Source: a virus (lineage: Duplodnaviria > Caudoviricetes). Taken from it: DNA of 64,000 nucleotides. The notes beneath the pieces were generated by a model. The model had not been told where the DNA came from and ran no database searches. It worked only from the letters and a program-made list of their open reading frames with translations. Position 1 is the first letter of the stretch. Every line of letters starts with the position of its first letter. Positions 38,684 through 39,403 of this stretch are shown here, in pieces. Location of the stretch: IMG/VR virus record IMGVR_UViG_3300017766_003100, positions 32,001 to 96,000 of that record. One strand, written 5' to 3'. The position numbers and the translations under genes are program-made.

Positions 38684-39403
38684 TGGCGGTAGTTCGGCAA
38701 TTAGTAAATTATTTATTAGTGCTAATTTGATACCTGATGTATTATATGTTTTAGTTGGGGTTGGGGGTAATGGTGGTACTGCTGGTAATTCAGGTAGTGT
38801 TGGTCAGGTGTCTTATGTATCAGTTCAACCTGATTTAAGTCTTTATAATGTTTTAATTGGGAGTAGTAATACTCAACCAACTGGAGGTGTTGGGTCAGGA
38901 GGTAGTGGTGGTGGTGGCGGTGGTACAGGTGCTGCCGCTTTTGTACAGGGTACGGGGATACCTAGTTATAATGGTATTTTTACTTCAAATGTGGGTGTAA
39001 ATGGTGGTGGAGGTGGTTCGGCTGGTACTGCGGGGGTATCGATATCAATAGCAAATATTGTAACAGGTGGAGCTGGTGGTGGTGGAGCTAATACTTCAAT
39101 AGGGTTAGCTGGAGGTAACATCACAGGTAGTGGGTTTGTCCCAACCATATTAGGTGGTACTGGGGGTACTTCAACAAGTGGGTCAGGAAATGCGGGTTTT
39201 GGGGAATATAGAATGTGTGATTCATCAAGACCTCAAAGTATTTTTTTACAGGTGGTGCTGGTGGTGGAGCTAATGGTTCTGGAAATGGAGGTAATGGTGG
39301 TAATGGCTCTTATGGATGTGGAGGAGGAGGTGGTGGTGCAGGTTTAATTGGTGGAAGTGGCGGAAAAGGTGGAGATGGTTTGGTAATAATAACTTGTTGG
39401 TAA
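38496..39403 (+). pseudogene. Glycine-rich copy 3, split by a frameshift at the T7 tract 39241-39247 (frameshift allele, programmed -1 shift or assembly error)
   Basis: Frame-0 ORF stops at 39347 with a non-homologous tail; the -1 frame continues FFTGGAGGGANG...GCGGGGGG...GLVIITCW to TAA 39401-39403, matching copies 1 and 2. Confidence 0.8.

Follow-up and report, generated by a model that had tools for sequence, protein, structure and literature searches.

Does the third of three tandem glycine-rich genes in this phage carry a programmed frameshift, a slippage-driven on/off switch, or a missing base? In the window, by which we mean the whole stretch of 64,000 bases analyzed here, this gene is read as two overlapping frames that join at a run of seven T residues (T7). 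The initial annotation offered three explanations: recoding, a phase-variable fiber, or an indel in this record. Based on other assemblies of the same phage, the protein family, and a predicted structure, we consider it very probable that the frame break is specific to this record and is not a programmed frameshift. The short run would then reflect either a wrong homopolymer length of technical origin, which is the likelier cause, or a rare variant.

The split gene and its neighborhood

The three glycine-rich genes lie head-to-tail over 36706–39403 with 4-base gaps. They sit directly downstream of a 1845-aa fiber-like open reading frame (ORF; 30528–36065) and are followed by a glycosyltransferase block. 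The relevant features are as follows.

36706–37602, plus strand: glycine-rich paralogue 1, a 298-aa TNF-like and glycine-rich domain protein, from the ORF, a PF21722 match (E 5.8e-07), and the family alignment
37607–38491, plus strand: glycine-rich paralogue 2, 294 aa, from the ORF, PF21722, and alignment; TTA TTT TTT ACA (LFFT) stands at the site homologous to the break in copy 3
38496–39403, plus strand: glycine-rich paralogue 3, split in this record only and one 302-aa gene (909 bases with T8) in all other assemblies
39218–39220, plus strand: TGA in the -1 frame, upstream of the T run, from the frame reading
39241–39247, plus strand: the T7 run, T8 in every other assembly, coding for the conserved Phe-Phe of the FFTGG motif
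39345–39347, plus strand: stop of the out-of-frame Val/Glu-rich tail, which arises from the T7 record only

Translation of the window confirmed the reading on which the initial annotation was built. Frame 0, starting at the ATG at 38496, runs through ...RPQSIFLQVVLVVELMV...VVVQV and ends after 283 aa at the stop at 39345–39347, with the non-homologous Val/Glu-rich tail that had been described. The -1 frame is interrupted by the TGA at 39218–39220, also as claimed, is open from 39221, and continues as FIKTSKYFFTGGAGGG...GDGLVIITCW to a stop at 39401–39403, restoring homology. The junction is A-T7-A (39240–39248), and either one added T or a -1 shift yields the predicted 302-aa product with its GLVIITCW end. 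Moreover, ATT TTT TTA in frame 0 is formally an X XXY YYZ slippery heptamer placed where the two overlapping ORFs join. Copies 1 and 2, which had been named as the matches of this product, are true paralogues, and all three genes match Pfam family PF21722 (Gly_rich_2). The scores were 30.2 bits for copy 1, 33.4 for copy 2, and 24.4 for the truncated copy 3, all passing the cut-off of 24.3, and PHROG gave weak matches of the three copies to tail fiber and minor tail families.

Several observations concern the surroundings of these genes. The ORF at 30528–36065 contains many (F/Y)TNNTGGTF(N/S)VSG-like repeats and LTANTISATTYxNLP units. It had no Pfam or PHROG match and is presumably the giant fiber to which the glycine-rich proteins relate. 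Directly downstream of copy 3, 39416–39949 encodes a protein of 177 aa that contains Cys, has Thr/Pro-rich linkers (PTPTPTPSFTPTPTPTPTG), and matched no family. By analogy with gp25 of cyanophage Pam3, it could be a putative fiber accessory or chaperone. Blocks of glycosyltransferase and methyltransferase genes flank the structural genes at 10700–23200 and 40009–44358 (GlcNAc PF11397, Glycos_transf_2, Glyco_trans_1_2, Methyltransf_11/21/24, and HtrL_YibB), a glycan-modifying repertoire that is unusually large for a phage. Two Pro-rich minus-strand ORFs opposite the glycine-rich genes (37963–38520, 185 aa; 37639–37842, 67 aa) mirror Gly codons, GGN being read as NCC, and are almost certainly not genes. 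Copy 2 is shorter in the JGI gene calls (277 aa), which use a later ATG, than in the ENA calls and the ORF list (294 aa); the longer form aligns with the N-terminus of the family.

Length of the T run in other assemblies

We reached other assemblies of this phage through exact look-ups of neighboring proteins and obtained 12 loci from eight assemblies: three from JGI (3300003430, 3300004112, and 3300027769), two from ENA (ERZ27247881, with a contig of 295,135 bases, and ERZ27247882), and three from Logan (SRR5260498, SRR5260499, and SRR10520205). Other loci of this phage, on a contig of about 295 kb, encode a neck protein resembling gp13 of T4, a DNA polymerase of family B, PhoH, and a dUTPase, and the source is a freshwater jumbo tailed phage of roughly 295 kb. 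All 12 loci carried T8 and the intact 302-aa gene, and none carried T7. Within several kilobases, they were otherwise the same as the window. Alignment of one of them (L010) over 8,534 bases gave 0 mismatches and exactly one gap, which was the T of the run. The intact gene was called in L010, L011, L012, L016, L017, L018, and L033–L035 (translation P0122). Beyond the break, the window is identical to the intact alleles and bears no sign of decay.

The same outcome was obtained from sequencing runs. Six runs from freshwater metagenomes, representing four samples and studies, contained the stretch almost in full. In Logan runs X1, X3, X6, and X7, which come from four samples and studies and of which X7 covers the stretch in part only (0.25 share of words), the sole covering contig each time had an extra T behind 39240 when compared over 38400–39600. 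The inserted T stood at the full local depth in all four (51.3/51.3, 136.6/136.6, 5.52/5.52, and 6.9/6.9), and these contigs had 0 further differences across 38654–39600. This comparison was of assembled contigs, in which minority variants drop out. We note that some of the other assemblies may share samples with the window (X1–X5 are possible sources), and not all are independent isolates. Shared samples strengthen the reading as an error, since the same reads would then have yielded T8 under other assemblers.

Searches for the two possible products gave a similar picture. The 283-aa T7 product was found in no collection searched, and in the gene-position index, only the T8 product was found, as a 302-aa protein on five contigs. 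An exact cluster look-up returned neither product. Scans of viral_contigs and metagenome_contigs with a junction pattern allowing T6 to T9 returned nothing; both collections apparently lack the phage, so these scans do not amount to an allele census. Phage GenBank gave no match by blastn with 36000–40000 or by tblastn with copy 2.

Uniform T8, which the initial annotation had tied in advance to an assembly error, was thus observed at the level of independent assemblies, that is, of contigs. Its third option, an indel in this record, gains support from the 12 loci in eight assemblies and from the four runs. The same data speak against its phase-variable fiber, as none of the 12 loci or of the covering contigs in the four runs carried T7. 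A phase-variable locus should vary in tract length within or between populations; here, T8 was seen in all other assemblies and compared contigs.

We therefore propose that the third gene would be intact in the natural population, encoding 302 aa and reading ATT TTT TTT ACA (Ile-Phe-Phe-Thr) across T8. The record behind the window would have lost one T, most likely through an undercall of the long T run during sequencing, assembly, or polishing. It is less likely that the record caught a rare slippage mutant. On either account, no recoding would be needed or used.

Could T7 instead be a genuine rare allele, in which slippage in T8 turns off one of three fiber-tip paralogues, through phase variation or as a fresh inactivation? 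Homopolymers of eight are prone to slippage, and with three tandem paralogues, the loss of one might be tolerated. There are also a few single-nucleotide differences from other assemblies (for example, at 25364 and 14687), so the window may represent a slightly different genotype. However, T7 occurred in none of the eight other assemblies and none of the four compared runs, its product was absent as described above, and the sequence following the break would have to have escaped decay entirely. We consider such an allele improbable. The more specific idea that T7 is a real minority allele, with the Phe-Phe T8 run acting as an off-switch for one receptor-binding tip paralogue in a fraction of the population, appears very improbable.

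Recoding signals, protein family, and predicted fold

Programmed -1 frameshifting at U UUU UUA would allow a T7 template to yield two products, the 302-aa protein and the shorter 283-aa one of frame 0. In its favor, the heptamer of the window's record has the X XXY YYZ pattern in the correct phase, and the open -1 frame brings back the homologous C-terminus. Yet a T7 template was found in no other assembly of the phage, and the window provides little sign of a recoding site. The motif TTTTTTTA occurs 44 times in the window compared with 41.8 ± 6.2 expected from shuffles, which is chance. Since the window is AT-rich (about 29% GC) and the motif is found at chance frequency, the T7A motif on its own carries no weight. 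The initial annotation had also seen no obvious downstream hairpin, and this was borne out: the 92 nt following the run fold at -12.4 kcal/mol (z = +1.19; minimum free energy, without pseudoknots), weaker than 181 of 200 shuffles, so that no stimulatory structure was detected there. The frame-0 tail (VVLVVELMVLEMEV...), which such a mechanism would have to make as a product, is Val/Glu-rich, has no homologue, and corresponds to GGN-rich coding sequence, that is, Gly codons, read out of frame.

The protein family provides a second line of evidence against frameshifting. The initial annotation had proposed a comparison with orthologues, and relatives contained no such frame break: 118 of the 120 homologues listed are full-length single ORFs of 290–338 aa. 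Together with the single ORF and T8 at the 12 loci and T8 in the four runs, this means that a conserved two-ORF arrangement was not observed. The 302-aa product (P0122) aligned over its whole length with both other copies and nine homologues (alignment A1). F251 does not vary in this alignment, and both the FFTGGAGGG block and the GDGLVIITCW block are conserved. The T run codes for the Phe-Phe of a conserved L/I-F-F-T-G-G block, and the C-terminal GCGGGGGGAG...GGxGGDGLVIITCW block, which lies after the break, is conserved across the family. A word-index protein search found no near-identical protein, the best match being 45% identical. Nine relatives in IMG/VR (L001–L009) are 43–47% identical and also have tandem paralogues; at this distance, they were rejected as orthologues for comparison of the T run.

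A structural model indicates what the shorter product would lack. P0122 was modeled confidently with AlphaFold2 from alignment A1, at a pLDDT of 85.9 and a pTM of 0.85. Residues 250–302, which are lost in the T7 record, scored 82–96, including a terminal strand at 296–301. In the model, the C-terminal 52 residues form an integral part of the fold and are predicted with high confidence, which again speaks against frameshifting at this site. A Foldseek search against the PDB matched the tail tip of mycobacteriophage Bxb1 (9d93_Q, E 6.5e-10, probability 1.00) and the fiber of cyanophage Pam3 (7ypx_A, E 1.2e-04), as well as the glycine-rich domains of ALK and LTK. The model has a beta-sandwich together with extended glycine-rich strands arranged as a lattice, and the TM-scores are moderate. 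In solved structures, the center of this lattice is taken up by two glycine-rich loops, the first and the last, which carry the -GGGGxGG- motif (PMC9608196). A product without the last glycine-rich motifs would presumably not fold. Overall, we regard programmed frameshifting at this site as extremely improbable. The slippery heptamer of the initial annotation is present in the window, in its letters and its phase, but its use in recoding is contradicted by T8 in the 12 loci from eight assemblies and in the four runs.

A second shortened T run and relation to known systems

Over the 61,910 of 64,000 bases that we compared with other assemblies, the window differed by only two indels. Both were the loss of one T from a long T run that has 8 or 9 residues in the other assemblies. 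The second is as follows.

45916–45923, plus strand: second short T run, T8 in the window compared with T9 in L024, L025, L026, and L032; intergenic

This run lies 7 nt upstream of the start ATG of a minus-strand gene (44385–45908). Twenty other A or T runs of at least 8 in the covered part match the other assemblies, indicating that undercalling was occasional rather than pervasive: only 2 of about 22 runs of true length of at least 8 are affected in this record. Since both indels are the loss of one T from a long T run, and one of these is non-coding, they point to a length undercall and not to gene-specific recoding or switching. A rare allele of the third gene would account for only one of them, as a switch acting on that gene leaves the sole other indel in 61.9 kb unexplained. 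The paired losses suggest a bias in length calling rather than selection on the third glycine-rich gene, and we infer a technical origin of T7.

Beyond the two indels, the differences were a handful of single-nucleotide changes and, in a single JGI contig, one patch of local divergence. Isolated changes relative to subsets of the assemblies lie at 25364, 14687, 24353, 12441, 51981, 52008, and 54598. At 25364, the window has T, and C is found in the assemblies behind L016 and L017 and in L019. Thus, the window represents a genotype or consensus slightly different from the others. The divergent patch spans 61574–61690, at the start of the gene at 61562–62080, with 30 mismatches in about 120 bases relative to L045 (JGI 3300027769), which is otherwise identical; related phages may have recombined here to give a small mosaic.

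Wrong homopolymer lengths in assemblies, or after polishing, are a familiar source of false frameshifts and pseudogenes. The break described here resembles them in being one base short in a long T run, in interrupting a conserved ORF, in being absent from other assemblies, and in having a counterpart of the same type at another long T run of the same record. It differs from pervasive homopolymer error in how few of the long runs were hit. The sequence U UUU UUA is the -1 slippery site of HIV-1 gag-pol, and the phage tail-chaperone genes G/GT also have programmed -1 sites. The window's record shares the letters of the HIV-1 heptamer. However, in contrast to both of these systems, there is no conserved break, stimulatory structure, or sign of two products, and the natural run appears to be T8.

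The glycine-rich genes themselves are three tandem paralogues whose product would be a tail-fiber or tail-tip protein, in which a TNF-like beta-sandwich is joined to extended, glycine-rich strands that form a lattice. This TNF-like and glycine-rich fold is the distal, receptor-recognizing part of the fiber in cyanophage Pam3 and Salmonella phage S16 (PMC9608196), and by analogy the paralogues may have a receptor-binding role. They resemble Pam3 gp24, S16 gp38, and the Bxb1 tail tip (PDB 7ypx and 9d93; PMC9608196) through PF21722 and Foldseek and have in common with them repeated GGGGxGG motifs, the last of which follow the break here, and an adjoining giant fiber-like gene. Unlike those proteins, they are three stand-alone tandem paralogues of about 300 aa and lack a long alpha-helical shaft at the N-terminus. 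They are 15–23% identical in sequence to the proteins of solved structure, with TM-scores of only 0.38–0.60, and a location at the virion tip is predicted here from gene context. A literature search for a glycine-rich domain together with a minor tail protein returned no match.

These results carry a caution for annotation, as a textbook-looking slippery heptamer in an AT-rich phage came down to a one-base homopolymer difference in one record. The locus is best annotated as a single intact gene for a glycine-rich fiber-tip paralogue of 302 aa, and homopolymer undercalls should be assumed in the record, at least two of them in 62 kb. For the biology of this phage, the triple tandem array of TNF-like and glycine-rich proteins behind a giant fiber gene is of modest interest for host recognition and is of a known kind.
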